From: Candidatus Latescibacterota bacterium
GTDB lineage: Bacteria > Latescibacterota > UBA2968
Direction of reading: 5' to 3'
Assembly (NCBI GenBank): GCA_038279365.1
Contig: JAYODI010000014.1
Coordinates: 38,508 to 67,129, forward strand
Length of the DNA: 28,622 nt
Position 1 is the stretch's first letter. The number at the start of each line of letters is the position of its first letter. The notes below the pieces were generated by a model, which was given only the letters and a program-made list of their open reading frames with translations, was not told the DNA's origin and made no database searches. Position numbers and translations under genes: made by a program. Shown here piece by piece: positions 6,730 to 28,622 of the stretch.

Positions 6730-8964
6730 ATGAACAAACTGATAGATAAACCTGTTAATGGATTGGTGCAGCGCATTTCTGCAGTGCTTTCTTCAGATGA
6801 ACAAGAGTTAATTCGCGTAGAATCAGACCTTGGAGCGGATGGTCGATTTGGCACGCAGTGGGTGGTGGTGACGCCAAAGCGCGTATTGGTCTATCAAAAC
6901 GGCGAAGATGGCAATGTGATCGATATTCCGATAGATGAGATTTCCATTGCCCGAACAGAGGGGTTGATTGGTGGGGCACGGTTGGAAATTCATCGCAAAA
7001 ATGCGCCATCTGTTTATGTACCTTTTTCCAAAACGCTTGCTCAAAAGTTTTCAGAAACCACGCGGGGGATTGAGCAACTGCGAAAAGGACAAGAATTTTT
7101 TGTCAACGCAGACCTTGATCGAACTCGCTGTGAGAAGTGTGCGCGTTTGTTGCCAGAAAAAAATGGCATTTGCCCTGCTTGTATCAATCGATTTGCAACA
7201 CTTGGGCGTATTGCCGCCTATTTGAAACCCTATAAAGGCCGTGCCATTTTGTTGGCGGTTGCTTCGGTAATGACCACGGTTACCGAGTTGTTGCCTCCCA
7301 TTGTGACCAAGCACATTTTTGATGATGTTTTGATTTTGCCAGAAGGCACGGATGTGCTCATGGGTGACCGGTTGGGGTTGTTGGGATGGTTGGTTATGGC
7401 ATTGGTGGGTATTCGGCTTATCACATGGTCTGGCGAATGGATACATGGTTGGACCATTACTTGGCTTTCTGCACGTGTGACAGCCGACATTCGCAGTCAG
7501 CTTTAAAAGCGAATGGAATTGATTTCTTTGCATTTTTATGACAAACGACAAGTGGGCGCAGTGATGTCGCGTGTGACCAGTGACAGTGGTCGTTTGCAAG
7601 ATTTTTTGGTAGATGGTTTGCCTTATATGCTCATCAATACCTTGATGTTGTTAGGCATTCTGATTGCGTTGTTTTCCATGAGTTGGCAACTGACGCTTTT
7701 GGTGCTTATTCCCATTCCTGCCATTGTGGCTTGGGGGATTTTCTTCTGGAACCGCATGCGTCGCTTTTTTACCCAGTGGATGCAGGCTTGGGGCGATGCC
7801 ATGTCACGGGTGAATGAAGCTTTAACGGGCATCCGGGTGGTGAAGGCGTTTGCACAAGAAATGAATGAAATTTCAGTTTTTAAAACACGCAATGATAAGC
7901 TGACCCGAATCGGGATTGTCACAGAGGTCAATCGAGGGATTTTTTTTAAAACGATGACCTTGTTGACTGCCTCTGGTGTGATGATTGTGTGGTATTATGG
8001 CGGCTTAGAGGTGGTAGACAACACGCTCACACCTGGCACATTGATGGCATTTTACAGTTACATGATGTTGCTATATGGACCCTTGGAGTGGTTTGGGATG
8101 GTCAACTCTTGGATGACCCGTGCTTTTGCGGGTGCAGAACGGATTTTTGAAATCATAGACACACCGCCTGAAGCCTACCAAGACCCCAACGCTGTGCCGA
8201 TGCCCAATATAAATGGGCGGGTTACGTTTAAAGATGTGACTTTTGGTTATGACAAGAGCAAACCAGTTTTGCACGAAATCGACTTAGATGTGCAACCTGG
8301 CGAAATGATTGGTTTGGTGGGCAAATCTGGGGTGGGTAAAACCACCACTGTAAATCTTATTTGTCGGTTTTATGATGTGGATCGTGGGGCCATTGAAATT
8401 GATGGGGTGGACGTCAAAAAAATCCGCTTAGAAGACGTGCGCAGTCAAATAGGCATTGTGTTACAAGAGCCTTTTTTGTTTTCGGGAACCATTGCTGAAA
8501 ATATTGGTTATGGCCGTCCTGGTGCCACATTTGAAGACATTGTCAATGCGGCCAAAGCTGCTGCTGCGCACGACTTTATTGTATCTAAACCCGATGGATA
8601 TGATACCCTTGTGGGAGAACGAGGCGACTCGCTTTCGGGCGGTGAACGCCAACGGATATCCATTGCAAGAGCTGTCTTACATGATCCCAAAATTCTCATT
8701 TTAGATGAAGCGACTTCATCGGTTGATGTGCAAACCGAAAAGCGCATTCAAGAAGCCATTACACGGCTGGTGGCAGGGCGCACAACATTTGCCATTGCAC
8801 ATCGTTTGTCAACACTTCGCAATGCTGGGCGATTGTTGGTGATGGATGCTGGGCGCATTGTTGAAATGGGTACGCATGAAGAGTTGTTAGAGAAAAAAGG
8901 TGTCTTTTATAATTTGGTGCAATTACAAGAAGAGATTTCGCAAATTATTGCGATCAAGGAATAG
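6730..8964 (+). pseudogene. ABC exporter (fused TMD+NBD, N-terminal extra domain and zinc ribbon) interrupted by one in-frame TAA at 7504-7506
   Basis: ORFs 6730-7506 and 7513-8964 are in the same frame. The joined sequence IRSQL*KRMELISLHFYDKRQVG aligns with paralog LREDLYRAFQLLPVRFYDKRKVG, so the stop sits at a Tyr position. Walker A GKSGVGKT, signature LSGGERQ, Walker B ILILDEATS and AHRLS are intact. May be a sequencing error rather than a true pseudogene. Confidence 0.75.
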
Positions 8965-13979: not shown

Positions 13980-14075
13980 AAAATGCTTGTCAAGAGTGTA
14001 TAAACTTGTTTAATTAATAGGCCTTAGGGTGTATTTTTAGAAACCATTTTAACCCATAAAGGAGGTTTGATCCGT

Positions 14076-15020
14076 ATGATCCGGGTAGAAAATCTGGTGA
14101 AATACTACGGCGACTTCCAAGCCCTCAAAGGGATCGATTTGCAGATCCAGGATGGCGAGATTGTGGGATTTCTCGGTGCCAATGGCGCGGGAAAATCGAC
14201 CACACTCAAGATCATGACGGGCTTTTTGGCGCCAACATCGGGCAGTGTGTTTTTGGATGATATGAATATCCAAGAACACTCGCTTGAAATAAGGAAACAA
14301 ATCGGGTATTTGCCCGAATTGAATCCGCTTTATGGAGAAATGAAGGTATTTGATTATTTGGAATTCATATCCCAAATACGAGAAATGGATGCCAATTCGT
14401 TTACGCGATCTTTGGGGCGTGTGGTTGAGCAATGTGGTTTGGGAAGTGTGATTCATCGGCCCATTTCGGAATGTTCTAAGGGTTATAAACAGCGTGTTGG
14501 GTTGGCCGCAGCGATTTTGCACGACCCCAAGGTGCTTGTTTTGGATGAACCCGTTTCGGGCTTGGACCCCAATCAAATTGTGGACATTCGCAACTTGATC
14601 AAAGAACTGGGCAAAGAAAAAATGGTGATTATGTCGAGCCATATATTGCAAGAAATTGCGGCAACGGTGGATCGCATTGTAATTATCAATCGGGGCCAAA
14701 TTGTGGCCAATGGCACCAGTCAAGAATTGATGTCGAGTTTGCGTGGGCAAACCCAATTGACTTTGGAAGTGAAAAACGCAACAGATGAGATCGTGGCCAA
14801 TATTGCCAATCAAGTAGGGGGCATCGAATTGGTCAATACAGACGCCACGGATGGTTTGCATGTTCTGTCGATTGCGTATGAACGGGGTACCGACCCGCGC
14901 GAAGAAATTTTCAATTATGCCAAAAACAGTGGGTGGACCATTTTGGAAATGAGTCAAACGCGTGTGCAGTTGGAAGATGTGTTCCGCACGCTGACAGCGG
15001 AAGGAGGCGGTCGTGCATAA
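14076..15020 (+). CDS. ABC transporter ATP-binding protein, GldA-like
   Basis: GANGAGKST, GYLPE, signature variant CSKGYKQRVGLA, LDEPVSGLDPNQ, SSHILQE. RBS AAGGAGG 10 nt before ATG 14076. Confidence 0.88.
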   Translation: MIRVENLVKYYGDFQALKGIDLQIQDGEIVGFLGANGAGKSTTLKIMTGFLAPTSGSVFLDDMNIQEHSLEIRKQIGYLPELNPLYGEMKVFDYLEFISQIREMDANSFTRSLGRVVEQCGLGSVIHRPISECSKGYKQRVGLAAAILHDPKVLVLDEPVSGLDPNQIVDIRNLIKELGKEKMVIMSSHILQEIAATVDRIVIINRGQIVANGTSQELMSSLRGQTQLTLEVKNATDEIVANIANQVGGIELVNTDATDGLHVLSIAYERGTDPREEIFNYAKNSGWTILEMSQTRVQLEDVFRTLTAEGGGRA

Positions 15021-15726
15021 TATTCTCGCTATTTTTCGCAAAGAAGTCAGCGCCTCGTTTAAAAGCCCAATGGCCTATGTGTTTTTGGTCTTTTTTGCAT
15101 TGTTTAATGGTTACTTTTTTACCAATACTTTTTTCTTATTTAACCAGTCGGATATGCGCGCGTTGTTTAATATTGTTCCGATGGTCTATTTGTTTTTTGT
15201 GCCTGTGGTAACTATGAGTTTGATTGCGCGTGAAAACAATTTGGGCACATCAGAAGTATTGGCCACGTTGCCCATTCAAGATTATGAGCTGGTGGTGGGC
15301 AAATACTTGTCTGCATTGGTGCTTGTTTTTGCGGGTTTGGCTTTTACTTTGGTACATGTCTTAACCTTGCTTTCTGTGGGTACCAATATTGATTATGGCA
15401 CGGTCATTTGTGGGTATATTGGCCTTGCTTTGGTGGGTGGGTTTTATGCGGCTTTGGGCACATTTTCGAGCAGTTTGACTGATAATCAGGTGGTGGCCTT
15501 TATTATTGCGGCCGTTTTTGTGTTGGTGTTTTATTTGTTAGACAAATTGCTTCTTTTTATGCCCACATCGCTAACTGGGGCCATTCAGTTTATGGCCGTT
15601 GATTATCACCTGTCGAATATGCGGCGTGGCGTGATTGATTCGCGTAATTTGGTGTATTTTGGTTCCCTCATTTGGTTGTTTTTGGCAATGACCGTTCGTG
15701 TTGTTGAAATGCGGAAGTGGAGGTAA
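15013..15726 (+). CDS. ABC-2 type permease, GldF-like
   Basis: AIFRKE...FKSPMAY, ARENNLGTSEVLATLP, VVGKY, SSLTDNQVVAFI, RGVIDSRNLVYF. GTG start overlaps the upstream stop and has an AAGGAGG RBS. Confidence 0.85.
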   Translation: MHNILAIFRKEVSASFKSPMAYVFLVFFALFNGYFFTNTFFLFNQSDMRALFNIVPMVYLFFVPVVTMSLIARENNLGTSEVLATLPIQDYELVVGKYLSALVLVFAGLAFTLVHVLTLLSVGTNIDYGTVICGYIGLALVGGFYAALGTFSSSLTDNQVVAFIIAAVFVLVFYLLDKLLLFMPTSLTGAIQFMAVDYHLSNMRRGVIDSRNLVYFGSLIWLFLAMTVRVVEMRKWR

Positions 15727-15729
15727 ACA

Positions 15730-17238
15730 ATGGCAGCGATTAATAGCAAAAAGTCTTTTTTGACTTATATCGTGGCGGCCATTGTGTTGGTGGTGTTGGC
15801 CAACGTGGTGTCACGAAACTTTTTCTTTCGGTTGGATTTAACCGAAAACAAGATCTATTCGCTTTCCCCTTCAAGCAAAGGGGTGATTGCAAAAATTGAT
15901 GATCTGTTAACGGCCAAGGTGTATTTCTCCGAAAATTTGCCAGGGCAATATGGCAATACCCAACGGTATTTGCAGGATATTTTGGAAGAATATGCGGCTT
16001 ATTCGGGGGGTAACTTCCGATTTGAGTTTTATCAACCCGATGATGACGAACAGTTGGCCCTTGAGGCTCAAAAGTCGGGCATTCAACCTGTGCAGTTGCA
16101 GGTGATTGAAAACGACAAAATGGAAGTCAAACGCGTGTATATGGGGTTGGTGTTGTTGTATGGTGACACACGCGAAGTGTTGCCCGTGATTCAGACCACC
16201 ACGGGGTTGGAATATGAGATTACGACCAAGGTGAAGAAATTGGTCGATAGCAACCGACCTGTGGTGGGGTTGGTAGCTTTGTCGGGGCAAAACCCGAAGA
16301 TCGAGCGCTTGAGTGGGCAACTGCGTGAGGCCTATGATGTGCGCGAAGTGGTTTTGGGGGGTGGTGTGCCTGATGAGGTGAACTTGCTGGTTATAACAGG
16401 TGTTGAAGACAGCCTCTCAGGCCCAGAAATGGCATCGTTGAATGGATTTATCAACCGTGGTGGCAATTTGTTTGTGACCCAAGGACGCATTCGTGGCGAT
16501 TTGCAATCTCAAATGGGCCAGCCCATCAAAACCAATATTTTTGAGGTGTTGGATCGCTATGGTGTGACGGTGGCCGAAAATTTGGTGATGGATCAAAAAA
16601 GCGGCACCATTACGGTGTCGCAGCAGCGTGGTTTTTTGCGGTTTAACTCGCAAGTACAATATCCATTCTTCCCGCAAATTCAGTCGTTTCCAGACCACGA
16701 TATTGTGAGTGGTTTGGAGCAGGTGCATTTGTTGTTTTCGAGTGAAATCACATTTGATACGGCCGATTCGACAGCCCATGTCACGCCTTTGTTGGTGACA
16801 TCGGATCATTCGGCAACCATGTCGGGTTATATCAATTTGAACCCGATTCAAAACAAATCTTTTGAAGGGCTGAATGAACCGGGCAAAGTGGTGGGTGTCT
16901 ATGCCACGACAGAGTCAGACAGCTTGCCTGGTACGATCAGTCAGATGGTGTTTGTTGCAAACAGTGAGTTTTTGGTGGATGATGGCGGTGGGCAAATTGC
17001 AGAAAACAGCATTTTTGTGCTCAATGCTGTAGATGTGTTGATTGGCGACAAAGATTTGGTGGGGTTGCGCTCGCGTGAAATTACAGCGCGTCCGTTGTTG
17101 CCAGTAGAAGAGGCCAGCAAAACCACGTGGAAAACCCTCAATATTTTGTTGCCAGCCTTACTCGTTATTCTTTTGGGGGTGATTCAGTGGCGTTTAGAAG
17201 TGGCACGCACCAAACGATTGGAGGAACTTTATGGGTAA
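15730..17238 (+). CDS. GldG-like ABC transporter auxiliary component
   Basis: N-terminal TM, RLDLTENKIYSLS, DILEEY, LEYEIT, FINRGGNL, NSIFVLNAVDVL, and a C-terminal TM. Confidence 0.85.
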   Translation: MAAINSKKSFLTYIVAAIVLVVLANVVSRNFFFRLDLTENKIYSLSPSSKGVIAKIDDLLTAKVYFSENLPGQYGNTQRYLQDILEEYAAYSGGNFRFEFYQPDDDEQLALEAQKSGIQPVQLQVIENDKMEVKRVYMGLVLLYGDTREVLPVIQTTTGLEYEITTKVKKLVDSNRPVVGLVALSGQNPKIERLSGQLREAYDVREVVLGGGVPDEVNLLVITGVEDSLSGPEMASLNGFINRGGNLFVTQGRIRGDLQSQMGQPIKTNIFEVLDRYGVTVAENLVMDQKSGTITVSQQRGFLRFNSQVQYPFFPQIQSFPDHDIVSGLEQVHLLFSSEITFDTADSTAHVTPLLVTSDHSATMSGYINLNPIQNKSFEGLNEPGKVVGVYATTESDSLPGTISQMVFVANSEFLVDDGGGQIAENSIFVLNAVDVLIGDKDLVGLRSREITARPLLPVEEASKTTWKTLNILLPALLVILLGVIQWRLEVARTKRLEELYG

Positions 17239-17797
17239 TTTAAAGTGGCTCATGATCGGAGTGTTGGTGTTGTTGGGGGCGTATTTTTTAATGCAATCTC
17301 AGCAAAGTGGATACACCACCCAAACAGACCGTGTGTTTCCCGATAAGGTTGATGGTGTTTCAAAATTGGTGTTTGAAAAAAATGGCGAAACCTTGACGCT
17401 CATCAAACAAGACACCACATGGTCTATTGTGGGGAACGATACCTTGGTGGTCAAGGCTGACCGAATCAAATCATTTTTTGATCAAGCCTTTGGTGTGGAA
17501 CGCGAAACGTTGATGACCCAAAAGGCCGATAATTGGTCTAAATATTCGGTGGATGATGCTTTGGGGGCGCACGTAAAGGTGTATGGGGCTTCGGATAAAT
17601 TGTTGACCCACGCCGTTTTTGGCCAATCTACATCTGATTGGTCGCGCAATTATGTGCGTGTGGGTGATGGCCCCGAAGTGTTTTTGACCAACATAAGCGT
17701 GCTTCATCAGTTAAACACATTGCCCACTTATTGGGGGCAGAAACCACCTCCACCCACACCTGTCGTTCTGGATTCGATAGGTGTGGAAGGGGAATAG
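17231..17797 (+). CDS. DUF4340-like membrane-anchored protein
   Basis: N-terminal anchor, LIKQDTTWSI and NYVRVGDGPEVFL motifs; overlaps the GldG-like gene, the usual position of DUF4340 in such operons. Confidence 0.6.
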   Translation: MGNLKWLMIGVLVLLGAYFLMQSQQSGYTTQTDRVFPDKVDGVSKLVFEKNGETLTLIKQDTTWSIVGNDTLVVKADRIKSFFDQAFGVERETLMTQKADNWSKYSVDDALGAHVKVYGASDKLLTHAVFGQSTSDWSRNYVRVGDGPEVFLTNISVLHQLNTLPTYWGQKPPPPTPVVLDSIGVEGE

Positions 17798-17825: not shown

Positions 17826-17862
17826 ACCCCCCGCAAGGTTGTAACTTGCGGGGGGTTTTTTT
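17826..17862 (+). terminator. Intrinsic terminator after the Gld-like operon
   Basis: ACCCCCCGCAAG / CTTGCGGGGGGT hairpin followed by a T run. Confidence 0.85.
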
Positions 17863-18007
17863 ATCAATGGATGCGTGTTGAATAATGGCGTATTTTTCTA
17901 TTTGCGTTAAGAATGGTTGCTCATTTGCGCCATTTGGGGCAGAATGCCTGGGATTAATAAAAAAAATATCTGAGATATAATTGAAATAGTTGGTTTTGGT
18001 TTTTTTG

Positions 18008-18020
18008 TAAGATATTGTTT
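18008..18020. promoter_or_regulatory. Possible IHF binding site
   Basis: TAAGATATTGTTT; reverse complement AAACAATATCTTA matches WATCAANNNNTTR with one mismatch; AT-rich DNA about 45 nt upstream of the sigma54-like motif. Confidence 0.35.
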
Positions 18021-18061
18021 ATAAAGTGTTTGTGTTGGAATTTTGAAAGTTTTAAAGGGTG

Positions 18062-18078
18062 CTGGCATTCCAGTTGCA
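18062..18078 (+). promoter_or_regulatory. Sigma54 (RpoN) -24/-12 promoter candidate for the giant gene
   Basis: CTGGCATTCCAGTTGCA versus YTGGCACGNNNNTTGCW, with exact GG-N10-GC spacing. Confidence 0.6.
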
Positions 18079-18259
18079 TAATAATTAATTATTTTTTGTG
18101 TTTGCCGTCACATGTCTTTTGCAGTTCTGTGTGTATAATAATATATTGTAGTATTCGGTTTTAACCTTCCGATTCCCTCCCCTAATGTTTTCCCAATACA
18201 AGGGTGCGTGATGGTAGCGCATTTCGTTTTTACATTCACAGTCATTTCGGGGTTCTGTG

Positions 18260-21200
18260 ATGTTTCGACTCGATCACTTTAGCCATAACAGTTTTATAAA
18301 TCATTCGAATTCTGTAAGAAGGCGTTTGTCAAAAAGCAAGGGACTGGCATTGTTGCTGACCCTTGTGTTTTGTTTGATAGACAGTTATGGGACTGTTTGT
18401 CAGGCTCAGACCTATACCGATGTTGCCAGCAGTGCTGGAGTGGTAACTGCATTGGCGGGTCGTGGATTAAACGCTGCTGATTACGATGGTGACGGCGATT
18501 TGGATTTTTATTTGAATGGGGTCAGTGTCGCCAATGTTTTATACCGCAACAATGGCGATGGCACGTTCACCAATGTGGCCAGTACGGCACTTGTAAACGA
18601 TGCTGGCGCTTCTCACGGTGCCTCGTGGGCAGATTTTGATAATGATGGGGATTTGGATGTTTTTGTGGCAAATATTGGGGGTGCAAACCGCTTATATCGC
18701 AACAATGGCGATGGCACGTTTACAGATATCGGCAGCAGTGCGGGCATTCAAGATGCCGCCACCCAAAGCAACTCCTCGCCCTGGGGTGACTTTGATGGCG
18801 ATGGTGATCTGGATATCTATGTAGCGAACAATGGCACCGATGTGAGTCGATTGTATCGCAATAACGGGGACAACACCTTCACCGATATTGCTTCAAGCGC
18901 GGGGGTCAGTGGCAGTGGCATCAACAACAAAGCAGGTTCTTCGTGGTCAGATTATGATGGCGATGGTGATCTGGATATTTATGTCTCAAGTGCCAGCACG
19001 ACCAATCTTTTGTTTCGCAATGACGGCGGGAATACATTCACGGAAGTAGGCAGTGCCGCTGGTGTTGGGAACTCGGGGGCTTCTCAAACTCATGTTTGGG
19101 GCGATTTTGATAACGATAGTGATTTCGATCTTTATGTCACATATCAAGATTCCAGTACGCCGAATTCGTTGTATCGCAATAACGGGGATGGAACGTTTAC
19201 AGATATATCAGGCACCGCAGGCGTAGGGGCTACCGTTATTGGACGTGGCACAATCATGGCGGATTACGATCTGGACGGAGATTTGGACATTTACGTTTCG
19301 AATCAGGGCTCTGCAAACTTGCTCTATCGCAACAATGGGGACAATACATTTACAGATATCGCCAGCTCCGAAGGCGTTGCAAATGGAACCAATAACAGTG
19401 GTGGTGCCGTGTGGGCTGATTTTGACAATGATAATGATTTGGATCTTTTTTTACGTAATGATACCCAATCCAATGCCTTGTTTCAAAATGCTGGCAATGC
19501 CAACAACTGGCTCCACGTAAAATTGGATGATGTGGTAGGACCACCAAGTGGTGTAGGTGCTCGTATCATTGCTGTGAGCACGGGGTTGCGGCAAGTGCGA
19601 GAACCCGATGGTGGCTCAGGCTACCTTGCACAAAATGCCCTTCCGATTGAATTCGGATTTGGCGGAACAACAACAATCGATTCTTTGATTGTGCATTGGC
19701 CCTCTGGTATCACATTTGACACCACCAATGTGGCAACGAATCAGGCTCTGACGATTGAAGAAAATTTGACGACGTTTACGGAGATGGCGACCTCCGCAGG
19801 GGTTGATGATTCTGGTGATGATGAGGGTGTTGCTGTAGGCGACTTTGATGGGGATGGTGATCTCGATATTTTTGTAGCAGTCAGTAGTGCTGCCAATTTT
19901 TTGTATCAAAATAATGGATCAAACTCTTTTGCAAATATTGCAAATGCAGCAGGTGTCGACGATGCCACAGATACCCGCAGCGCTGCCTGGGGTGATTATG
20001 ATGGTGACGGAGATTTAGATATTTATGCCACTGTTGTGGGGGGTAACAATTCATTGTATCGAAATAATGGGAACAGCACATTTACTGATCAGGGTGGCCC
20101 TACTGGCACCAATGATTCAGGCAATGGGCTTGCTGTGAGTTGGGTGGATTTTGATAATGATGGGGATCTGGATATTTCTGTGGGTACATCTCAGGTCGCG
20201 AATCGGCTTTACCAGAATGATGGTGGTGGCACGTTTACTGATATTGGAGGCATGGGTGGTGGCACAAACCTAATCCACTATGCAATTGGTTGGGCAGATT
20301 TTGATGATGATGGTGACCAAGACGCTTATATGAAAGATGGTGACTCTGGCGGTGGGTTTGCCGTTGGACAACTGTTTCGAAATGATGGTGGGGGGAGCTT
20401 TACTGATATTGGGGTTTCTGCCGGTGTTCAAGGTACCAGTGGCGTAACTTTGGGTGTGTCCTGGGGTGATTACGACAATGACGGAGATTTGGACCTTTAC
20501 CTCGCCAATACAAATGTGGCCAATGACCTCTTTTTAAACAATGGCAACAACACATTTACCAATGTCGCTACAACATTAGGGGTTGATGATACGGGAGAAA
20601 GTTATGGGGGACTTTGGGCAGACTACAACAGTGATGGCGATCTGGATTTGTATGTGCCTCTTGTTGGAACTGCAGACTTATTTTTTGACAACGATGGCAA
20701 TACATTTGTAGAAATCGGTACTCCAATAGGCATTGTTGACAATACTGGCAATTCTCGGGGCGCTACAGTTGCTGATTTCGATGGTGATGGTGACCTCGAT
20801 ATTTTTAAGGCCAAGAATGGATCAGCCAATAAATATTGGCGCAATGATGGGCCAATTGGTCGATATCTCAACATTAAGCTTACGGGCACTGTTAGTAACA
20901 ATTTAGGAATTGGTGCTGTTGTGCGTGCCTGGAATGGAGGCAATGTTCAACGCCGTGATTTGGATGGAGGGGCAGGTTATCCCACGCGACCAACTTCTCA
21001 GATACAATTTGGTTTTGATGGCAACACGACCACCATTGACTCACTGACTGTCGATTGGCCATCTGGTACGCATCAAAAACTTACCACTGAGCCAACCAAT
21101 CAAGTTTTGTCACTGACGGAACCTAGTCCACCAGAAGGCAACTTTGCTTATGGATTAGATTTTGATGGCACGGATGATGCGGTAACCGTTCCAGATGCAT

Positions 21201-24200
21201 CATCATTGGATTTAACAACAGCTTTGTCCTTGGAAGCTTGGGTCAAGGTTCCTACTTTGCCTGGTGCAACGCAAGCCATTGTTTCTAAGGCACGGAATGC
21301 TTCGGGTGCTGGTTATGCTTTGCTGGTGCACACCAGTGGTATTATCATATTCAACCTGAATGACAATACGACCAACATTGAAGCTGTTTCACCAACAAAT
21401 ACGTTGGTCGCGAACCAGTGGATGCACATTGCGGGGACATGGGACGGAACAACCGCCAAATTGTATGTTGATGGAATCCTCGTTGCGACTCAGGCGGCTT
21501 CGATTACCTTGCAAAACAGCACCGAAGATCTTCGTATCGGCCAATTTGCCTCTGGGTTAGCTTGGACATTGTTAGGTGCCGTTGACGAAGTGCGTGTGTG
21601 GAATGATGAGCGCACCCGATCTGAAATTACAACTTACATGAATACCGTGGTGGCGAGCAACGAAGCTGGGTTGGTCGCCTATTGGCGTTTGGATGACGGG
21701 ATGGGTACGACGGTGGAAGACTTAACGGCCAATAGCAATGACGGCACCATGGTCAATATGAGTTCTTCAACCGATTGGGTGGGGGCAATTCACGATCATC
21801 AGATAGTTGTGAATGCGCCGTCCGTTTATACGGGCGTTTTACCCGCAACCGATCCGGATGGTGATCCCCTTACGTTTAGTATTCAGGTGGATGGAAATAA
21901 AGGGGCGGCGGTTGTCACCAACGCATCGACAGGTGCTTTTACTTATACACCAATCGATGGTAGTGGTGGTGCAGATAGCTTCACCTATCGCATAACGGAT
22001 GGCACGTATAATGTCGATAAAGTTGTGAAGGTGTTGAATATCTCCGCCACATTTACAGAAGTAGCCAATTCACTTGGTTTGGACCATTCTGGAAACGCAA
22101 AAGGGTCTTGGGTTGACTTTGATGGCGACAGTGATTTGGATCTGTTCTTAGCCACAGACGGTGGTGCAAATGTGCTTTATCGCAACGATGCGGGAACTTG
22201 GAATGATGTGACGTCGGCAGCGGGTGTGGTTGACGCCAACAGTGCAACAGATATTGCTTGGGGTGATTTGGATAATGATGGTGATTTGGATGCTTATTTA
22301 CCGCTACAGGGAATTGCGAATAAACTGTATCGGAATAACAACGATGGTACTTTTACGGAAGTCGGTGGAACCGCAGGAGTAGGTAATGGCAGTACACAGG
22401 GCTTTACAACGGCATTTGCAGACTACGATCGAGATGGTGATCTGGATATCCATTTGGGAAACAATGCGACAGCCAATGTGTTGTTCCGAAATGATGGCGG
22501 TTTAACCTTTACTGCGACCTCTGAGATGACGGATGCGGGTAATGCACGGTCTGGGTCTTGGGGTGATTATAATAATGATGGCTATCCAGATTTATATCTC
22601 TCCAATTTCTCACAGGCAAATGTTCTGTATCAAAACAATGCAGATGGCACATTTACGGATGTTGCGTCTGGACAGAGCATGAATGATGTGTCGAATGGCA
22701 GTGGTTCAAGTTGGGGCGACTTTGACAATGATGGTGATTTAGATCTTGCCGTAGTCATGACGAGTACGGCCAAGCATCTGTGGCGCAACGATGGCGGAGG
22801 GACATTTACAGACATTGGTGTCGCGTCAGGGGTCGCTGATGCATCTGATGATGATTACTCGTCTTCTTGGGCAGATTTTGACGCTGATGGAGACTTGGAT
22901 TTATACGTCACCACAGCAAAATTAAACCAACTCTTTTTAAATAACGGAGATAACACCTTTATAAATGTCGCCACGATAACAGGCACCACGGGAAATAACA
23001 CTGTCGATCAAGCAGGTGTTTGGGGTGATTATGATGGCGATGGCGATCTCGATCTTTATGTGTCAGTAAACGGCGCAAGTAATCTGTTGTTTCGCAATGA
23101 TGGCAACAGCAATCGTTGGCTTTCTGTGAATTTGCAAGGTAGCAATCACATTGATGGTATCGGGGCAAAAGTCATTACTGTTATCTCTGGGTTGCGCCAG
23201 TTACGGGAAGTCAACAATGGTGATGGACTTTACGGACAAAGTTCGATCTCACAAGCGTTTGGGTTTGGATCAACAACAACCGTCGATTCACTCATTATCA
23301 AATGGCCTTCTGGCAAAACCTTTGATACGACCAATGTTGCAACCAACCAAGTGTTGACGTTGGCTGAGCCTGAGGTTGTATCTTTTATTGAAATTGCGGG
23401 TACTGCTGGGGTGAACAGTGCATCCAATGAAATGGGTGCGGTGTTGGGTGACTTTGATGGAGATGGGGATCAAGATATTTTTGTTCCTGCAAGTTCAACC
23501 GCAAACAGGTTGTATCGCAACGATGGTGCGCTGTCCTTTACTGATATTGCTTCCAGTGCGGGTGTGGCAACAACAACCGATGAACGGGGCGCATCTTGGG
23601 GTGACTACGACAATGATGGCGACTTGGACCTCTACGTTACCCAAGTGAGTGGTGCCAACTTCTTATATCAAAATAACGGGGATAACACATTTACAGATGT
23701 GGCGTCTGCTGCGGGCGTAGCCAACACCAACAACGGACAAAGTGTTTCTTGGGTAGACTTTGACCGCGATGGCGACGTGGATATTCATGTGACCGTCACC
23801 AGTGGTGTTGCCTCTGTCCTGTATCAAAATGATGGAACGGGGAACTTTACAGATGTGGCGTCAGCGGCGGGAGTTAACACTGCAACAAATGACGTTTCCG
23901 TTACGTGGGTTGACTTTGATCAAGATGGCGATATCGACTTTTATCAAGCCATCAATACAGGCGCCGTCAACAATCTGTTTAGCAACAATGGTGATGGTAC
24001 GTTTACAGATGTAGCATCTGGTGCAGGGGTTACGGGTGCTGCTGGAGACAACACCGAAGGGGCTGCTTTTGCAGACTTTAACAACGATGGATATCCAGAC
24101 CTTTATGTGGGGAATTCTTCTGTAGCAAACAAACTCTTTAAGAACAATGGGAATGGCACCTTTACAGATGTTGCGACAACGGCAAATGTAAACACACCTT

Positions 24201-27200
24201 CAGGTTATGGCATAGCTTGGGGAGATGCCGATAATGATGGGTATTTAGACCTTTTTGTCACACGACCCAGTGGTGCGGAAAAGTTTTATCTCAACAACAC
24301 CGATGAGACATTTCTCGATTGGACTGGCATTGGAAATCTGACAGGTTCGGGTGCAGGAAGGGGAGCCGCTTTTGGTGACTTAGATGCCGATGGTGACCTT
24401 GATTTGTATGTGTCGTATTATGGGGCGGCAAACCGTTTGTATCAAAACAATGGGAATACCAATAGATATTTGCATGTGGTTCTCAATGGGTCGATAAGCA
24501 ATGCCAATGGTTTGGGTGCTCAAATTACAGCTGTTACGGGTGGTCTGCGTCAAACGCACTACGTAGATGGGGGTTCGGGTCAATTTTCACAACCATCTAT
24601 ACCTGTAGAGTTTGGATTTGGTACGATAACAACAGTGGACTCGCTGATAGTTGATTGGCCTTCGGGTAAACAGTTTGATACGACCAATGTCGCGACAAAC
24701 CAGGTTTTGACCATTGTTGAACCCCCACCAACTTTTACCGATGTTGCGGCAACTGCAGGTGTTGATGTTGCAGGCAATACTGCGGGTGCGGCTTGGGGGG
24801 ATTATGATGCAGATGGCGATCTTGATTTATTTGTTTCTGATGGCGGGTCTGCAAACCTTATGTATGAGAACGCTGCCGGTGTCTTTACGGATGTGGCAAC
24901 CGCCAAAGGGTTAGACGATGCAGGTCAAAGTGAGGGGGTTGTTTGGGTTGACTATGACAATGATGGTGATCTTGACCTTTATCTTGCACAGGGCAGTACT
25001 TCGACAAGTCGGTTGTATCAAAACAGTGGCAGTGCAACATTCACTGAGGTCGGTTCTGCGGCAGGTGTAGCAACGTCAAGCTCTGACTTGACTGTTTCTT
25101 GGGCAGACTACGACAATGACGGTGATGCAGACTTTTACTTAGGTGTTCATGCAGGGGCAGACTATTTATTCAAAAACAACGGGAATGGTACGTTTACCAA
25201 TGTTGCAGGAACCGACATTCCTACAAACAGTACAAATGCACGAGGGGTGGCCTGGGCCGATTACGACGGAGATGGTGACCCTGACCTTTTTGTAACGAAC
25301 TTATCAACCGACCCGAATTTGCTTTTCTCCAATGATGGAGATGGCACGTTTACAGAAGTTGGTGCCACTGCAGGTGTCAATGATACGGGTGAAAGTTATG
25401 GCGCTGCATGGGGTGACTTTGATAACGATGGTGACTTTGACCTTTATATGTCAAATGGGGTTGTGGGAACTAACCGGTTGTATCAAAACAATGGAAATGC
25501 AACCTTCACGGACATCGGTAGCAGTGCAGGTGTGGATAACACGGCCAACAGCAGAGGGCCAGCCTGGGTAGATATTGATAATGATGGTGACCTCGATCTT
25601 TATGATGTGGCCGACGGCGCCAACATTCTCTATGAAAACCAAGGCAACAATACATTTTTGAATCGGACGGTTGCCACCGGACTTGGGGGATTGTCATCTG
25701 CAGACACTTACGGAAGTGCATGGGCGGATTATGATAATGATGGTGATTTAGATGCCTATGTGGTGAATGTAGCTGGTGGTGTCAATTTGCTTTATCGCAA
25801 CAATGGGAATACCAACAATTGGTTGCAAGTTGCTTTATCCGCAAATGCAAGCAATGCGTCGGCAATGAATGCTGTGGTTAAAACGGTTGCTGGAGGTTTG
25901 GTTCAATATCGTCAAATTGATGGCGGAAGTGGTCTGTATACTCAAGGTTCATTGGCTCTCGAATTTGGTTTGGGGGGGGCAAGCACTGCCGACTCCATCA
26001 TCGTTTTTTGGCCTTCTGGTAAAATCTTTGATACCACCAATGTTGCAGTGAATCAGAGCCTGACTATTGAAGAGAATTTGACGGCGTTTACTGCGGTCAC
26101 TGGGTCGCCAATTAATATCAACCAAACGGGCGCGTTTGCGGTTTCCTGGGTGGATTATGATGTTGATGGCGACTTTGATCTTTACGCTGGGTATAACAAC
26201 ACGGTTAATAGGTTGATTCGCAACGATGGTGGTGGCACGTTTGTAGACGTTTCAGCGGCGCCAGTAAATAATGGTGGGGCTACATTTGGAGCGGCTTGGG
26301 GAGACTACGACAGCGATGGCGACCCAGATCTGTATATGGTCAATTCTGGAACGGCCAACTTCCTGTTCCGCAACGATGGTGGGGGCACATTTACCGATCA
26401 AACTTCTGGCCCACTTGGAGACACGGGCATTGGACGAGGTGTTGGTTGGTTTGACTATGACAACGATGGTGATCTGGATCTTTATCTTTCAAATTATACG
26501 TCGAGCAATCGTCTATTTCGCAACGATGGCGGTGGAACGTTTGTTGATGTGGGGGGAACCACAGCCAATACGGGGGCAAATACTGGGATGGGGTTGGGGG
26601 ATTATGACGACGATGGCGATGTAGATATTTATGTCACATCCATTGCAAGTGAAGCCAATGCTTTGTACCGTAATAATGGAGATGGCACATTTACAACACA
26701 AACGGGTGTGATGGATGACACGGTAAACGGTCAATCACCTGTGTGGGGAGATTATGATAATGATGGGGATTTGGATCTCTACATTGGTAACCTTGGCTCA
26801 GCGGATAAGTTGTATCGCAACAATGGAGACAATACCTTTACAGATATTTCAACAAGCTCCAATGTTCTAAACCCTAATAGCGGAACCTCTGTTGCAGTAG
26901 CAGACTACGACAACGATGGTGATTTGGATGTCTATGTATCGATCTCCCCAAGTGCAAACAATATTCTCTATTTGAACAGTGGCAATGGTGTATTTGGTGA
27001 TGTGGCAAACGGTTTGGGAGTGGTTGGTTCTTCGAATAGCCAAGGTGCAAGTTGGGGCGATTATGATGGGGATGGGGACCTTGACCTTTACGTTATGGAA
27101 GAGGCATCCCCAAATCATCTTTATCGAAATGATGGCAATTCCAATGGGTATTTGGGGGTCGATTTAAGCGGAACGATTAGCAACATAGATGGTGTTGGAG

Positions 27201-28622
27201 CCACTGTTCGGGCTTATGTGGGGGCATCGACACAGCGCAGGGATGTAGGGGGGGGATACGGTTCTTATGGTCAGCAACCTCTTCGGTCTGCATTTGGATT
27301 TGGAGCGACAGCAGCAACCATTGACTCTCTGGTGGTCAATTGGCCTTCTGGTGTCCATCAAACGTTGACCTCTGTGACCCTCAACGATACGATGACGGTT
27401 ATTGAACCCTCACTGCCAGAAGGCAATTTTATATATGGGTTGAATTTTGATGGTACGGATGATGTGATCATTGTACCCGATGCGGCTTCGCTTGATCTGA
27501 CCACATCTTTGACACTTGAGGCTTGGGTTAAAGTATCGTCGTTACCAGGTTCACCTGCGGCTGTTGTTAGCAAGCCTCGGAATTCGACAGGTGCGGGTTA
27601 TTTGTTGCATTTGGATGCCTCTGGCGTTGTAAAGTTTAATTTGAACGACAACACCACCAATGTGGTGTTGTCATCGGGCAACAATACTTTTGTTACAAAC
27701 AAATGGTTCCACATAGCGGGTGCCTGGGATGGTACGTCGGCAAAGCTATATGTTGATGGGATATTGGTGGGAGAAACGGCTGCCGCGATAACCCTTCAAA
27801 ACAGCGCGGAAGATTTGCGCATAGGTCAATTGGCGAGTGGATTGGCCTATCAATTTGCTGGGCAAATTGACGAAGTGCGCGTGTGGGGGGATGCCCGTAC
27901 ACAAAGTGAAATTTCACACAAGATGAATACGGTATTGGCGAGCAACGAAGCTGGGTTGGTTGCCTATTGGCGTTTCGACGATGGGGTGGGTTCGACACTT
28001 AACGATGAAACATCAAATGCCAACCATGGTAGCCTCACCAATATGCAAGGAATAAGTGATTGGGTAGACGCAGAGCACCTCCATCAAATCGTTGTCGATT
28101 TGCCTTCTGCTTACACGGGTGTTTTGCCTGGTATTGATTTAGGGGGTGATCCGTTAACCTTTAGTATTCAAGTAAATGGCACCCGAGGCAATGCTGTTAT
28201 AGACAATGCCAGCACGGGCGCATTTACATACACACCATCCAACGGCAATGGCACTGTTGACAGTTTGGTATATCGCATCAGTGATGGTGTCTCTTTTGAC
28301 GATGAAGCCATCAAAATTGTGTTGCTGTCATCTTCGTTTACCAATGTGGCAGCATCGGCAAATGTGAATGATTCTGGGAATGCAAGGGGCACTGCTTGGG
28401 CAGATTATGACGGGGATGGTTTGCTTGATTTGTACGTGGCTAAAAATGGCGCCAATGTGCTGTATCGCAATGGCGGTGGTGGCACATTTACCAATGAATC
28501 AACGGCGGCGGGTGTAGGTAGTGGGGGAGATGATTGGGGCGTTGCTTGGGCAGATTATGATGGGGATGGGGATTTGGATCTTTGGGTGGGGTCTGGAACG
28601 GATGTGTTGTTTGAAAACAATG
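18260..28622 (+). CDS. Giant secreted FG-GAP/ASPIC-UnbV (CRTAC1-like) repeat protein with LamG and Ig/cadherin-like domains, 3'-truncated by window edge (>=3454 aa)
   Basis: Frame 2 begins ATG TTT CGA (MFRLDHF...VRRRLSKSKGLALLLTLVFCLIDSYGTVCQA|QTYTDVASSAGV) after an in-frame TAG at 18215. The motifs read in frame 2 at the start, throughout and at the window end, and the ORF track shows no terminated frame-2 ORF here, consistent with no stop. 44 DxDxDGDxD-type loops counted. Confidence 0.92.
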   Translation, partial: MFRLDHFSHNSFINHSNSVRRRLSKSKGLALLLTLVFCLIDSYGTVCQAQTYTDVASSAGVVTALAGRGLNAADYDGDGDLDFYLNGVSVANVLYRNNGDGTFTNVASTALVNDAGASHGASWADFDNDGDLDVFVANIGGANRLYRNNGDGTFTDIGSSAGIQDAATQSNSSPWGDFDGDGDLDIYVANNGTDVSRLYRNNGDNTFTDIASSAGVSGSGINNKAGSSWSDYDGDGDLDIYVSSASTTNLLFRNDGGNTFTEVGSAAGVGNSGASQTHVWGDFDNDSDFDLYVTYQDSSTPNSLYRNNGDGTFTDISGTAGVGATVIGRGTIMADYDLDGDLDIYVSNQGSANLLYRNNGDNTFTDIASSEGVANGTNNSGGAVWADFDNDNDLDLFLRNDTQSNALFQNAGNANNWLHVKLDDVVGPPSGVGARIIAVSTGLRQVREPDGGSGYLAQNALPIEFGFGGTTTIDSLIVHWPSGITFDTTNVATNQALTIEENLTTFTEMATSAGVDDSGDDEGVAVGDFDGDGDLDIFVAVSSAANFLYQNNGSNSFANIANAAGVDDATDTRSAAWGDYDGDGDLDIYATVVGGNNSLYRNNGNSTFTDQGGPTGTNDSGNGLAVSWVDFDNDGDLDISVGTSQVANRLYQNDGGGTFTDIGGMGGGTNLIHYAIGWADFDDDGDQDAYMKDGDSGGGFAVGQLFRNDGGGSFTDIGVSAGVQGTSGVTLGVSWGDYDNDGDLDLYLANTNVANDLFLNNGNNTFTNVATTLGVDDTGESYGGLWADYNSDGDLDLYVPLVGTADLFFDNDGNTFVEIGTPIGIVDNTGNSRGATVADFDGDGDLDIFKAKNGSANKYWRNDGPIGRYLNIKLTGTVSNNLGIGAVVRAWNGGNVQRRDLDGGAGYPTRPTSQIQFGFDGNTTTIDSLTVDWPSGTHQKLTTEPTNQVLSLTEPSPPEGNFAYGLDFDGTDDAVTVPDASSLDLTTALSLEAWVKVPTLPGATQAIVSKARNASGAGYALLVHTSGIIIFNLNDNTTNIEAVSPTNTLVANQWMHIAGTWDGTTAKLYVDGILVATQAASITLQNSTEDLRIGQFASGLAWTLLGAVDEVRVWNDERTRSEITTYMNTVVASNEAGLVAYWRLDDGMGTTVEDLTANSNDGTMVNMSSSTDWVGAIHDHQIVVNAPSVYTGVLPATDPDGDPLTFSIQVDGNKGAAVVTNASTGAFTYTPIDGSGGADSFTYRITDGTYNVDKVVKVLNISATFTEVANSLGLDHSGNAKGSWVDFDGDSDLDLFLATDGGANVLYRNDAGTWNDVTSAAGVVDANSATDIAWGDLDNDGDLDAYLPLQGIANKLYRNNNDGTFTEVGGTAGVGNGSTQGFTTAFADYDRDGDLDIHLGNNATANVLFRNDGGLTFTATSEMTDAGNARSGSWGDYNNDGYPDLYLSNFSQANVLYQNNADGTFTDVASGQSMNDVSNGSGSSWGDFDNDGDLDLAVVMTSTAKHLWRNDGGGTFTDIGVASGVADASDDDYSSSWADFDADGDLDLYVTTAKLNQLFLNNGDNTFINVATITGTTGNNTVDQAGVWGDYDGDGDLDLYVSVNGASNLLFRNDGNSNRWLSVNLQGSNHIDGIGAKVITVISGLRQLREVNNGDGLYGQSSISQAFGFGSTTTVDSLIIKWPSGKTFDTTNVATNQVLTLAEPEVVSFIEIAGTAGVNSASNEMGAVLGDFDGDGDQDIFVPASSTANRLYRNDGALSFTDIASSAGVATTTDERGASWGDYDNDGDLDLYVTQVSGANFLYQNNGDNTFTDVASAAGVANTNNGQSVSWVDFDRDGDVDIHVTVTSGVASVLYQNDGTGNFTDVASAAGVNTATNDVSVTWVDFDQDGDIDFYQAINTGAVNNLFSNNGDGTFTDVASGAGVTGAAGDNTEGAAFADFNNDGYPDLYVGNSSVANKLFKNNGNGTFTDVATTANVNTPSGYGIAWGDADNDGYLDLFVTRPSGAEKFYLNNTDETFLDWTGIGNLTGSGAGRGAAFGDLDADGDLDLYVSYYGAANRLYQNNGNTNRYLHVVLNGSISNANGLGAQITAVTGGLRQTHYVDGGSGQFSQPSIPVEFGFGTITTVDSLIVDWPSGKQFDTTNVATNQVLTIVEPPPTFTDVAATAGVDVAGNTAGAAWGDYDADGDLDLFVSDGGSANLMYENAAGVFTDVATAKGLDDAGQSEGVVWVDYDNDGDLDLYLAQGSTSTSRLYQNSGSATFTEVGSAAGVATSSSDLTVSWADYDNDGDADFYLGVHAGADYLFKNNGNGTFTNVAGTDIPTNSTNARGVAWADYDGDGDPDLFVTNLSTDPNLLFSNDGDGTFTEVGATAGVNDTGESYGAAWGDFDNDGDFDLYMSNGVVGTNRLYQNNGNATFTDIGSSAGVDNTANSRGPAWVDIDNDGDLDLYDVADGANILYENQGNNTFLNRTVATGLGGLSSADTYGSAWADYDNDGDLDAYVVNVAGGVNLLYRNNGNTNNWLQVALSANASNASAMNAVVKTVAGGLVQYRQIDGGSGLYTQGSLALEFGLGGASTADSIIVFWPSGKIFDTTNVAVNQSLTIEENLTAFTAVTGSPININQTGAFAVSWVDYDVDGDFDLYAGYNNTVNRLIRNDGGGTFVDVSAAPVNNGGATFGAAWGDYDSDGDPDLYMVNSGTANFLFRNDGGGTFTDQTSGPLGDTGIGRGVGWFDYDNDGDLDLYLSNYTSSNRLFRNDGGGTFVDVGGTTANTGANTGMGLGDYDDDGDVDIYVTSIASEANALYRNNGDGTFTTQTGVMDDTVNGQSPVWGDYDNDGDLDLYIGNLGSADKLYRNNGDNTFTDISTSSNVLNPNSGTSVAVADYDNDGDLDVYVSISPSANNILYLNSGNGVFGDVANGLGVVGSSNSQGASWGDYDGDGDLDLYVMEEASPNHLYRNDGNSNGYLGVDLSGTISNIDGVGATVRAYVGASTQRRDVGGGYGSYGQQPLRSAFGFGATAATIDSLVVNWPSGVHQTLTSVTLNDTMTVIEPSLPEGNFIYGLNFDGTDDVIIVPDAASLDLTTSLTLEAWVKVSSLPGSPAAVVSKPRNSTGAGYLLHLDASGVVKFNLNDNTTNVVLSSGNNTFVTNKWFHIAGAWDGTSAKLYVDGILVGETAAAITLQNSAEDLRIGQLASGLAYQFAGQIDEVRVWGDARTQSEISHKMNTVLASNEAGLVAYWRFDDGVGSTLNDETSNANHGSLTNMQGISDWVDAEHLHQIVVDLPSAYTGVLPGIDLGGDPLTFSIQVNGTRGNAVIDNASTGAFTYTPSNGNGTVDSLVYRISDGVSFDDEAIKIVLLSSSFTNVAASANVNDSGNARGTAWADYDGDGLLDLYVAKNGANVLYRNGGGGTFTNESTAAGVGSGGDDWGVAWADYDGDGDLDLWVGSGTDVLFENN
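18407..27415 (+). repeat. Six complete ~1.35 kb modules, each seven FG-GAP repeats plus one ASPIC/UnbV domain
   Basis: Approximate modules: 18407-19770, 19771-21130, 22045-23375, 23380-24725, 24730-26080, 26085-27415. Each has seven ~50 aa repeats (W[GAV]D[YF]DxDGDLDxY...LYxNxG..TFTD) and ends FG[FL]...DS...WPSG. A seventh module starts near 28330. Confidence 0.88.
21140..22040 (+). repeat. LamG-like jellyroll + Ig/cadherin-like domain, copy 1
   Basis: LDFDGTDDAV...SLEAWVK...QWMHIAGTWDGTTAKLYVDG...GAVDEVRVW...GLVAYWRLDDG, then ATDPDGDPLTF...GAFTYTP...DSFTYRITDG. Confidence 0.8.
27425..28325 (+). repeat. LamG-like jellyroll + Ig/cadherin-like domain, copy 2
   Basis: LNFDGTDDVI...TLEAWVK...KWFHIAGAWDGTSAKLYVDG...GQIDEVRVW...GLVAYWRFDDG, then GDPLTFSIQ...GAFTYTP...DSLVYRISDG. 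Offset from copy 1 is 6285 nt. Confidence 0.8.

Follow-up and report, generated by a model that had tools for sequence, protein, structure and literature searches.

A gene of about 27.6 kb in a Candidatus Latescibacterota genome encodes a chain of CRTAC1-like propellers ending in a type IX secretion sorting domain

A stretch of 28,622 nucleotides (nt) from the genome of a Candidatus Latescibacterota bacterium (assembly GCA_038279365.1, contig JAYODI010000014.1, positions 38,508 to 67,129; hereafter the window) ends inside a giant gene. Our results indicate that the open frame at its 3' end is the first third of a single gene encoding about 9,200 residues, the product of which begins with a signal-peptide-like N-terminus, contains eleven copies of a CRTAC1-like unit, and ends in a type IX secretion system (T9SS) sorting domain. 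We consider it fairly probable that the product of this one gene of about 27.6 kb is exported by the T9SS, is held at the cell surface, and acts there as a multivalent adhesin. A preliminary description of the window had claimed a very large secreted protein, and a single chain with a signal-like N-terminus and a C-terminal sorting domain agrees with that claim.

Within the window, positions 18257 to 28621 of the plus strand form one open frame of 3,455 codons with a GTG start, an ATG directly after it at 18260, and an open 3' end. An open frame of more than 10.3 kb had been claimed beforehand, with in-frame stops named as evidence to the contrary; the translation is free of stops from 18257 or 18260 to 28621. 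The frame was absent from the original list of open reading frames (ORFs) because it runs off the end of the window, and windows ending at scaffold gaps can conceal giant genes.

The window (C104:38508-67129, C104 being the contig named above) is bordered on each side by a scaffold gap of 10 N. Beyond the downstream gap, the frame meets no stop in the rest of the 83,590-nt contig, giving 8,942 amino acids (aa) including four X. C104 overlaps contig C1 by 55 nt, the final 55 nt of the former matching the initial 55 nt of the latter exactly; apart from these two ends, the 55-mer is absent from the 199 contigs of the genome. Past the overlap, the in-phase frame adds 272 aa and reaches a stop at C1:871. 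The whole product has 9,214 aa, about 957 kDa, and an isoelectric point of 4.05, and is rich in Gly, Asp, Asn, and Thr; the part in the window (3,455 of about 9,214 codons) makes up about 37% of the gene.

The two joins invite the alternative that the giant frame is an assembly product, in which the scaffolder at the 10-N gap, or an erroneous join of ours at the 55-nt overlap, linked two or three separate members of one gene family. One gap lies right after the window and another before it, the frame is in phase when the 10 N are counted as written, which would happen by chance in one case out of three, C104 ends within the gene, and the assembly consists of 199 contigs with 7.4% estimated contamination. 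Parts of the window are contained in 20 public runs from 13 studies, with the habitat labels estuary, marine, and salt-marsh metagenomes; none of the Logan contigs from four of these runs, all of them short (depth about 3-8), extends over the gap, so that they provide neither an independent bridge nor evidence against one. The sequence on the two sides of the joins nevertheless fits one gene. Both flanks of the gap belong to one propeller, that of unit 7, for which a self-built blade hidden Markov model (HMM) finds exactly seven blades, two before the gap and five after it, and the blade spacing over the gap is 46 residues (other spacings, 46-57), which suggests that few residues are missing there. 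No stop, start, or signal peptide is present on either flank, and the window part by itself runs for 3,455 aa without a stop. Homologues (denoted by P numbers; searches at E <= 0.001 in the size ranges 1,900-6,047 aa and 3,015-9,596 aa, the latter with a 5,483-aa reference) are colinear over both joins: P0002 and P0252 span the gap in single high-scoring segment pairs, and P0227, P0304, P0251, P0252, and P0179 each give one such pair running from the Fn3 array over the C104/C1 junction to both C-termini. No further copy of the 55-mer exists in the genome, and a two-part dockerin-like repeat straddles the same junction. Taken together, we regard an assembly product as highly improbable. Pairwise identity among the CRTAC1-like units is only 36-49%, which makes repeat collapse unlikely and by which recent repeat amplification or collapse was ruled out.

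The domain order of the window part had been described as P-A, P-A, LamG, Ig, four times P-A, LamG, Ig, and P, where P-A denotes a seven-blade FG-GAP propeller followed by an UnbV/ASPIC domain, that is, a CRTAC1-like unit. This order was reproduced by motif positions, by unit alignment, and by the blade HMM. Pfam searches of the 3,455-aa window part gave 40 stretches of FG-GAP_3 (E 2.7e-266), six of UnbV_ASPIC, two of Laminin_G_3, and two of Big_9. Exactly seven repeats per propeller had likewise been claimed, and the blade HMM counts seven in each of the six complete units of the window as well as in unit 7. The signal-peptide-like N-terminus was found as read from the sequence, with a basic stretch, a hydrophobic core of 13 residues, and the motif CQA/Q. 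The features of the giant gene in the window are as follows.

18257..28621, plus strand: window part of the giant gene, open frame with GTG at 18257 and ATG at 18260
18260..18406, plus strand: signal-peptide-like N-terminus (aa 2-50), 59% identical to the N-terminus of homologue P0002
18398..19771, plus strand: CRTAC1-like unit 1, seven FG-GAP blades and UnbV/ASPIC (Pfam, alignment, blade HMM, AlphaFold2 [AF2] model)
19772..21127, plus strand: CRTAC1-like unit 2 (alignment, blade HMM)
21128..21751, plus strand: Laminin_G_3 (concanavalin A-like) domain 1 (Pfam)
21773..22051, plus strand: Big_9/cadherin-like immunoglobulin (Ig) domain 1 (Pfam, self-built HMM)
22031..23377, plus strand: CRTAC1-like unit 3 (alignment, blade HMM)
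23378..24727, plus strand: CRTAC1-like unit 4 (alignment, blade HMM)
24728..26080, plus strand: CRTAC1-like unit 5 (alignment, blade HMM)
26081..27412, plus strand: CRTAC1-like unit 6 (alignment, blade HMM)
27413..28036, plus strand: Laminin_G_3 domain 2 (Pfam, best stretch aa 3065-3220)
28058..28336, plus strand: Big_9 Ig domain 2 (Pfam, self-built HMM)
28316..28621, plus strand: first two blades of CRTAC1-like unit 7 (blade HMM), interrupted by the end of the window and the 10-N gap

The whole chain of 9,214 aa continues this pattern, adds further propeller and beta-sandwich domains, and then passes into long arrays of Ig-like and Fn3-like domains.

aa 48-957: units 1-2
aa 958-1265: first pair of LamG and Big_9
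aa 1259-3052: units 3-6
aa 3053-3360: second pair of LamG and Big_9, 65% identical to the first
aa 3354-3795: unit 7
aa 3796-3965: domain X, copy 1
aa 3987-4279: six NHL blades forming one propeller (self-built HMM in agreement with Pfam NHL tiles)
about aa 4277-4372: Big_5
aa 4373-4760: seven-blade FG-GAP propeller without ASPIC
aa 4745-4887: domain X, copy 2, 45% identical to copy 1
aa 4888-6659: units 8-11
aa 6686-7327: seven tandem Big_9/cadherin-like domains (self-built HMM and Pfam tiles)
about aa 7328-7531: segment without a Pfam match over the cut-off
aa 7532-8821: thirteen Fn3-like domains (self-built HMM and Pfam tiles)
after the Fn3 array: about 100 residues with no Pfam match
just before the sorting domain: dockerin-like pair and cohesin-like domain, both under the Pfam cut-offs
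C-terminus, on contig C1: type A T9SS sorting domain (TIGR04183 and FlgD_ig over the cut-off)

In total, the chain contains 84 FG-GAP-type blades in 12 propellers, which with the NHL propeller makes 13, and 65 strict DxDxDG motifs. By the blade HMM, each of the 11 CRTAC1-like units has seven blades. Matches to UnbV_ASPIC (PF07593), six in the window part and four and two in two overlapping downstream tiles, correspond to 11 distinct sites, and these coincide with 11 sites of a WPSG/FPSG motif, from which an ASPIC HMM was built. The self-built NHL HMM drifted onto FG-GAP blades, and only its six matches at aa 3987-4279 were used. From about aa 7530 onwards, Pfam gave sub-cut-off matches to Pur_ac_phosph_N and fn3. 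The RTX nonapeptide repeats and the C-terminal type I secretion (T1SS) signal of giant adhesins such as SiiE and LapA are not seen: scans with Pfam and NCBIfam gave no HemolysinCabind or RTX family, and the C-terminus is instead a T9SS domain. Nor did a catalytic family of either database turn up along the 9,214 aa.

By sequence profile and predicted structure, the repeated unit is a CRTAC1-like module. A profile made from the 10 aligned units (of 11, without unit 7, in which the N gap lies) had murine CRTAC1 (9etn; E 5e-44) as its sole sequence match in the PDB. The AF2 model of unit 1 (pLDDT 85, pTM 0.88) had 9etn_A as its top Foldseek match in the PDB, with a query TM score (TMq) of 0.87, E 5e-30, and a root-mean-square deviation of 2.9 over 514 columns at 23% identity. 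The assignment is made because profile, model, and Foldseek all point to the same structure; the next Foldseek matches were fungal GlcNAc lectins of the PVL/AAL2 type at a TM score of about 0.4. In the alignment of the 10 units the Asp columns are invariant, and the DxDxDG motifs suggest that the propeller loops may be occupied by calcium.

Domain X is a beta-sandwich of about 150 residues, with its two copies at about 68,149-68,658 and 70,996-71,424 of C104, where they flank the NHL propeller and the FG-GAP propeller that lacks ASPIC. It belongs to no Pfam family. A search of 1.84 billion proteins yielded only 76 representatives at E <= 0.001, including a fragment of 88% identity that comes from elsewhere. 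Its AF2 model (pLDDT 94.5) is closest in fold to the N-terminal beta-sandwich of GH33 sialidases from Bacteroidetes (TMq 0.60-0.65, E about 1e-4). The relatives of domain X are found in other mosaic extracellular proteins, which also contain NHL, SBBP, FG-GAP, cohesin, and dockerin domains.

The preliminary description had proposed extending the contig in search of a C-terminal secretion signal, and a type A T9SS sorting domain was found there, 5,759 residues past the window end. This C-terminal domain (CTD) matches TIGR04183 with 28.4 bits (cut-off 23) and FlgD_ig with 30 (cut-off 27); the Pfam model Por_Secre_tail (PF18962) gives only 18.2 bits against 27. A gene for the translocon SprA is present in the same genome (702.6 bits, cut-off 200), and 22 frames of the genome carry a type A CTD over the cut-off. 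PorU-like (258 bits) and PorV-like (151 bits) frames are present as well. Export by the T9SS is the probable route. As an observation apart from the giant gene, the frame C130:5735-10702 (minus strand; 1,918 aa) resembles PorU, carries a CTD of its own, and scores 258 + 63 bits against a cut-off of 420; judged from its sequence, it is a candidate for a divergent T9SS sortase.

We propose that the protein would leave the cytoplasm by the Sec route through its signal-like N-terminus, fold in the periplasm with calcium, and be recognised at its CTD by the T9SS and passed through SprA. The CTD would then be cleaved off and the C-terminal end tethered to the cell surface, as in the type A cargo of Porphyromonas. 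The C-terminal third, with seven Big_9/cadherin-like and thirteen Fn3-like domains, would thus place 20 Ig-like domains next to the tether as a stalk, projecting outward the N-terminal two thirds, an array of about 6,600 residues made of 11 CRTAC1-like modules, two LamG domains, the NHL propeller, one further FG-GAP propeller, and two beta-sandwiches resembling carbohydrate-binding modules (CBMs). From the domain count, the extended length may be about 150-200 nm. Such an array could act as a multivalent, calcium-stabilised binder of polymers, particles, or other cells. That it binds polymers or particles multivalently seems to us the most economical reading because the chain combines many diverged folds of binding type, the absence of a catalytic family, and a stalk. 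Tandem domains like those forming the stalk of fibrillar adhesins are present (the Big_9 and Fn3-like arrays), and for the adhesive head that such proteins also have, LamG, NHL, FG-GAP, and the CBM-like domain X would count as binding folds by analogy. Our best guess for the ligand would be glycans, by analogy with the LamG domains, the fungal FG-GAP lectins, and the sialidase N-terminal domain that domain X resembles.

Several observations count against this proposal. The PorU-like frame (258 bits against 420) and the PorV-like frame (151 against 250) remain under the curated cut-offs, a GldK-like match is weak and unspecific (106 bits against 350), and the GldM model has no match in the genome, a result that is uninformative because the model matched none of the controls either. 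Covalent anchoring after removal of the CTD is familiar from Bacteroidota and is here carried over to another phylum, so that surface anchoring and orientation are presumed by analogy with Bacteroidota T9SS cargo. No ligand-binding residue was identified in the protein, and the lectin fold matches mentioned above are distant. The dockerin-like and cohesin-like segments stay below the Pfam cut-offs (Dockerin_1 15.9 bits against 22.9; Cohesin 15.1 against 24.1) and are not counted as a cellulosome-type cohesin-dockerin module; a prediction of a complex between them scored 0.02 and was used as evidence neither way. Finally, the 167 other genomes of the phylum yielded no such gene (over 168 genomes, its own included, the largest frame containing a listed match has 2,641 aa), and because no relative in the phylum has it, conservation lends no functional support.

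The segments just before the CTD also bear on where the protein ends up. A dockerin-like pair and a cohesin-like domain at this place would fit a protein that is exported but is not an anchored adhesin, being either released or used as a scaffold of a coat or biofilm matrix like Bap1/RbmC of Vibrio, possibly networked through these segments. At rank 41, the distant fold matches to the unit include Bap1 of V. cholerae (6mlt), cohesin and dockerin exceed the threshold in relatives of domain X (P0172), and PF00963 is listed for the homologues P0015, P0053, and P0105. Set against this are the sub-threshold scores of both segments in the giant protein itself, the lack of exopolysaccharide genes adjoining the gene, and the fact that type A CTDs usually go with anchoring, and we rate a free or matrix-bound scaffold as unlikely.

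The distant fold matches further include aldos-2-ulose dehydratase (4a7z, 4a7k) and alkaline phytase (3amr), and seven-bladed propellers comprise enzymes, so that the propellers might be catalytic; instead of binding, the giant protein would then act as an enzyme, processively or at multiple sites, on polysaccharides or other polymers. One relative, P0082, is named 'enediyne biosynthesis protein E4' by JGI, and P-A units are found fused to S8 or M10 peptidases (PF00082 in P0010 and P0017-P0025; PF00413 in P0246). The giant protein itself contains no catalytic family, however, CRTAC1 as the closest solved structure is not deposited as an enzyme, and eleven diverged copies with an Ig/Fn3 stalk fit an architecture of display. 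An enzymatic role is in our view quite improbable, and a surface-held binder remains the reading that we prefer.

A bolder form of the surface-binder reading, which we hold to be a long shot, would make this protein (about 957 kDa, 13 propellers, about 55 domains) the largest T9SS substrate yet and a first sign of calcium-rigidified 'propeller ropes' of about 150-200 nm, a distinct capture appendage of some bacteria of the FCB group from estuarine or marine sediments. Such ropes would pass bead by bead through the SprA pore and might associate with each other through the dockerin- and cohesin-like segments. Because the gene is missing from all relatives in the phylum, its acquisition or assembly would have taken place in one lineage.

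We also sought to learn how the architecture is distributed. The homologue searches matched 679 of 2,312 scored proteins in the range of 1,900-6,047 aa and 267 of 1,064 in the range of 3,015-9,596 aa. The homologues bear generic names ('FG-GAP-like' or 'VCBS repeat-containing protein'), and the titles of their metagenome-assembled genomes (MAGs) refer to Eisenbacteria, Marinimicrobia, KSB1, Bacteroidota, Elusimicrobiota, Verrucomicrobia, and others. Among the 236 homologues listed, a self-built ASPIC HMM gave no match in 144, one in 4, two in 19, three in 47, four in 11, five in 4, six in 5, eight in 1, and ten in 1. P0246 (6,885 aa) has 56 blades, eight ASPIC matches, and a CTD-like tail, and P0247 (6,459 aa) has 63 blades and 9-10 ASPIC matches, so about nine units; the longest listed homologue, P0254 (7,967 aa), is ASPIC-less with 94 blade matches. 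P0004, P0005, and P0008 are complete homologues with a signal peptide, four to six P-A units, and, like the giant protein, a tail of the NYPNPFNP type. Two truncated fragments, 45-49% identical to the giant protein, are colinear with it, P0002 over 2,465 columns and P0003 over the Big_9/Fn3 region, and probably derive from orthologous giants in other samples.

Closer to the source genome, the largest frame with a listed match has 1,716 aa in a set of 40 genomes from its genus, family, and order, and in the best 79 loci of species-representative genomes (plus-strand frames of at least 1,500 aa) the longest frame has 2,385 aa with at most three ASPIC domains. In view of the unnamed chains with 8 and 9-10 P-A units (P0246, P0247) and the ASPIC-less proteins of about 90 blades in public sets, the 'possibly undescribed architecture' of the preliminary description was an overstatement. 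The giant protein puts known domain types together in a known manner, that of giant repetitive T9SS surface proteins and of CRTAC1-like modules, at a size and number of units unmatched by any homologue found, and is of a kind that is known but uncharacterised.

In the neighbourhood of the gene, an operon ends shortly upstream and is followed by a spacer.

17826..17856, plus strand: terminator-like hairpin and T run (12 pairs, nine of them G-C; consensus scan), ending the ABC/GldG-like/DUF4340 operon
17857..18256, plus strand: AT-rich 400-nt spacer with promoter-like hexamers at 17954-17981 and 18118-18147

The spacer presumably holds the giant gene's own promoter; its promoter-like sites (three, against 2.3 expected in shuffles) are no more frequent than by chance. 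On the same strand, the genes upstream encode TamB, DUF362, a phosphopantetheinyl transferase, two ATP-binding cassette (ABC) exporters, DUF1854, and an S49 peptidase, and then an ABC ATPase, an ABC-2 permease, a GldG-like protein, and DUF4340, with an asparagine-synthase-like gene on the opposite strand. Between the phosphopantetheinyl transferase and the two ABC exporter genes with DUF1854, a 258-aa ORF without a Pfam match is located at 6730-7503 (plus strand). The giant gene is flanked by two convergent four-gene sets, at 14067-17797 of the window (plus strand) and at 1034-6784 of C1 (minus strand), each encoding an ABC ATPase, an ABC-2 permease, a GldG-like ABC_transp_aux/DUF7088 protein, and DUF4340. 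The two sets are distant paralogues, and a recent inverted duplication was ruled out, the ATPases being 39% identical and the GldG-like proteins barely alignable. Adjoining the downstream set, C1 6810-8366 (minus strand) encodes a 519-aa protein with Laminin_G_3 and a TerB-like C-terminal segment. No glycoside hydrolase or exopolysaccharide cluster adjoins the giant gene; one downstream frame has a weak sub-cut-off GH88-like match. The GC skew, (G-C)/(G+C), is strongly positive in every 1-kb bin of window positions 1-28000 (0.08-0.28, mostly about 0.2), and suggests a bias of strand rather than of coding, because the region of the one minus-strand gene (2625-4394) is included.

With about 9,200 residues, the protein ranks with the largest bacterial proteins and exceeds the longest homologue found (7,967 aa, in a search range up to 9,596 aa), and it shows the extent to which CRTAC1-like modules can multiply within one chain. 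As a predicted T9SS substrate of about 1 MDa composed of rigid propellers, it offers a test case for how the T9SS handles very long folded cargo. Its single units are small, well-predicted targets for finding what bacterial CRTAC1-like propellers bind.

As in CRTAC1/ASPIC (9etn) and in bacterial proteins with FG-GAP_3 and UnbV_ASPIC, seven FG-GAP blades carrying DxDxDG loops precede an UnbV/ASPIC beta-sandwich in each unit of the giant protein; CRTAC1 has one such unit in a PDB chain of about 586 residues, whereas 11 units and other domains are found here. The functions of vertebrate CRTAC1 are not transferable to the giant protein. Chains of P-A units are shared with P0247 (NCBI 'MAG: VCBS repeat-containing protein [Verrucomicrobia bacterium]'), P0246, and P0002/P0003, all of them shorter or fragments, generically named, and none characterised; none combines 11 units with NHL, X, LamG, and a stalk. 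At the level of titles and abstracts, no published description of such multi-unit P-A chains was found. The integrin-type bacterial propellers of Chouhan et al. 2011 (PMC3192720), in the parts of that paper drawn on here, occur at most two in tandem with an assumed cytoplasmic role, in contrast to the 12 FG-GAP-type propellers and the export signals of the giant protein. The blade type is covered by the paper on the VCBS propeller superfamily (PMC8023676), as far as the section used here goes. The RCC1-type propeller giants of Oscillospiraceae (West-Roberts et al. 2023, 10.1101/2023.11.21.568195), as portrayed in the portions of the preprint cited here, are likewise very long extracellular proteins of repeated seven-bladed propellers. 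They belong to another propeller family, and FG-GAP, ASPIC, VCBS, T9SS, and 'type IX' all have 0 occurrences in the preprint text.

No publication was found that combines 'type IX secretion' and 'FG-GAP'. SprB of Flavobacterium johnsoniae is reportedly a giant T9SS surface adhesin of about 6,500 aa with a type B CTD and a PorP/SprF partner. The giant protein differs from it in its repeat type and in a CTD that matches the type A model TIGR04183, and the flanks of its gene showed no PorP/SprF gene. What it would share with SprB is the character of a very large, repetitive surface protein exported by the T9SS, and the SprA translocon is encoded in the genome that carries the giant gene.

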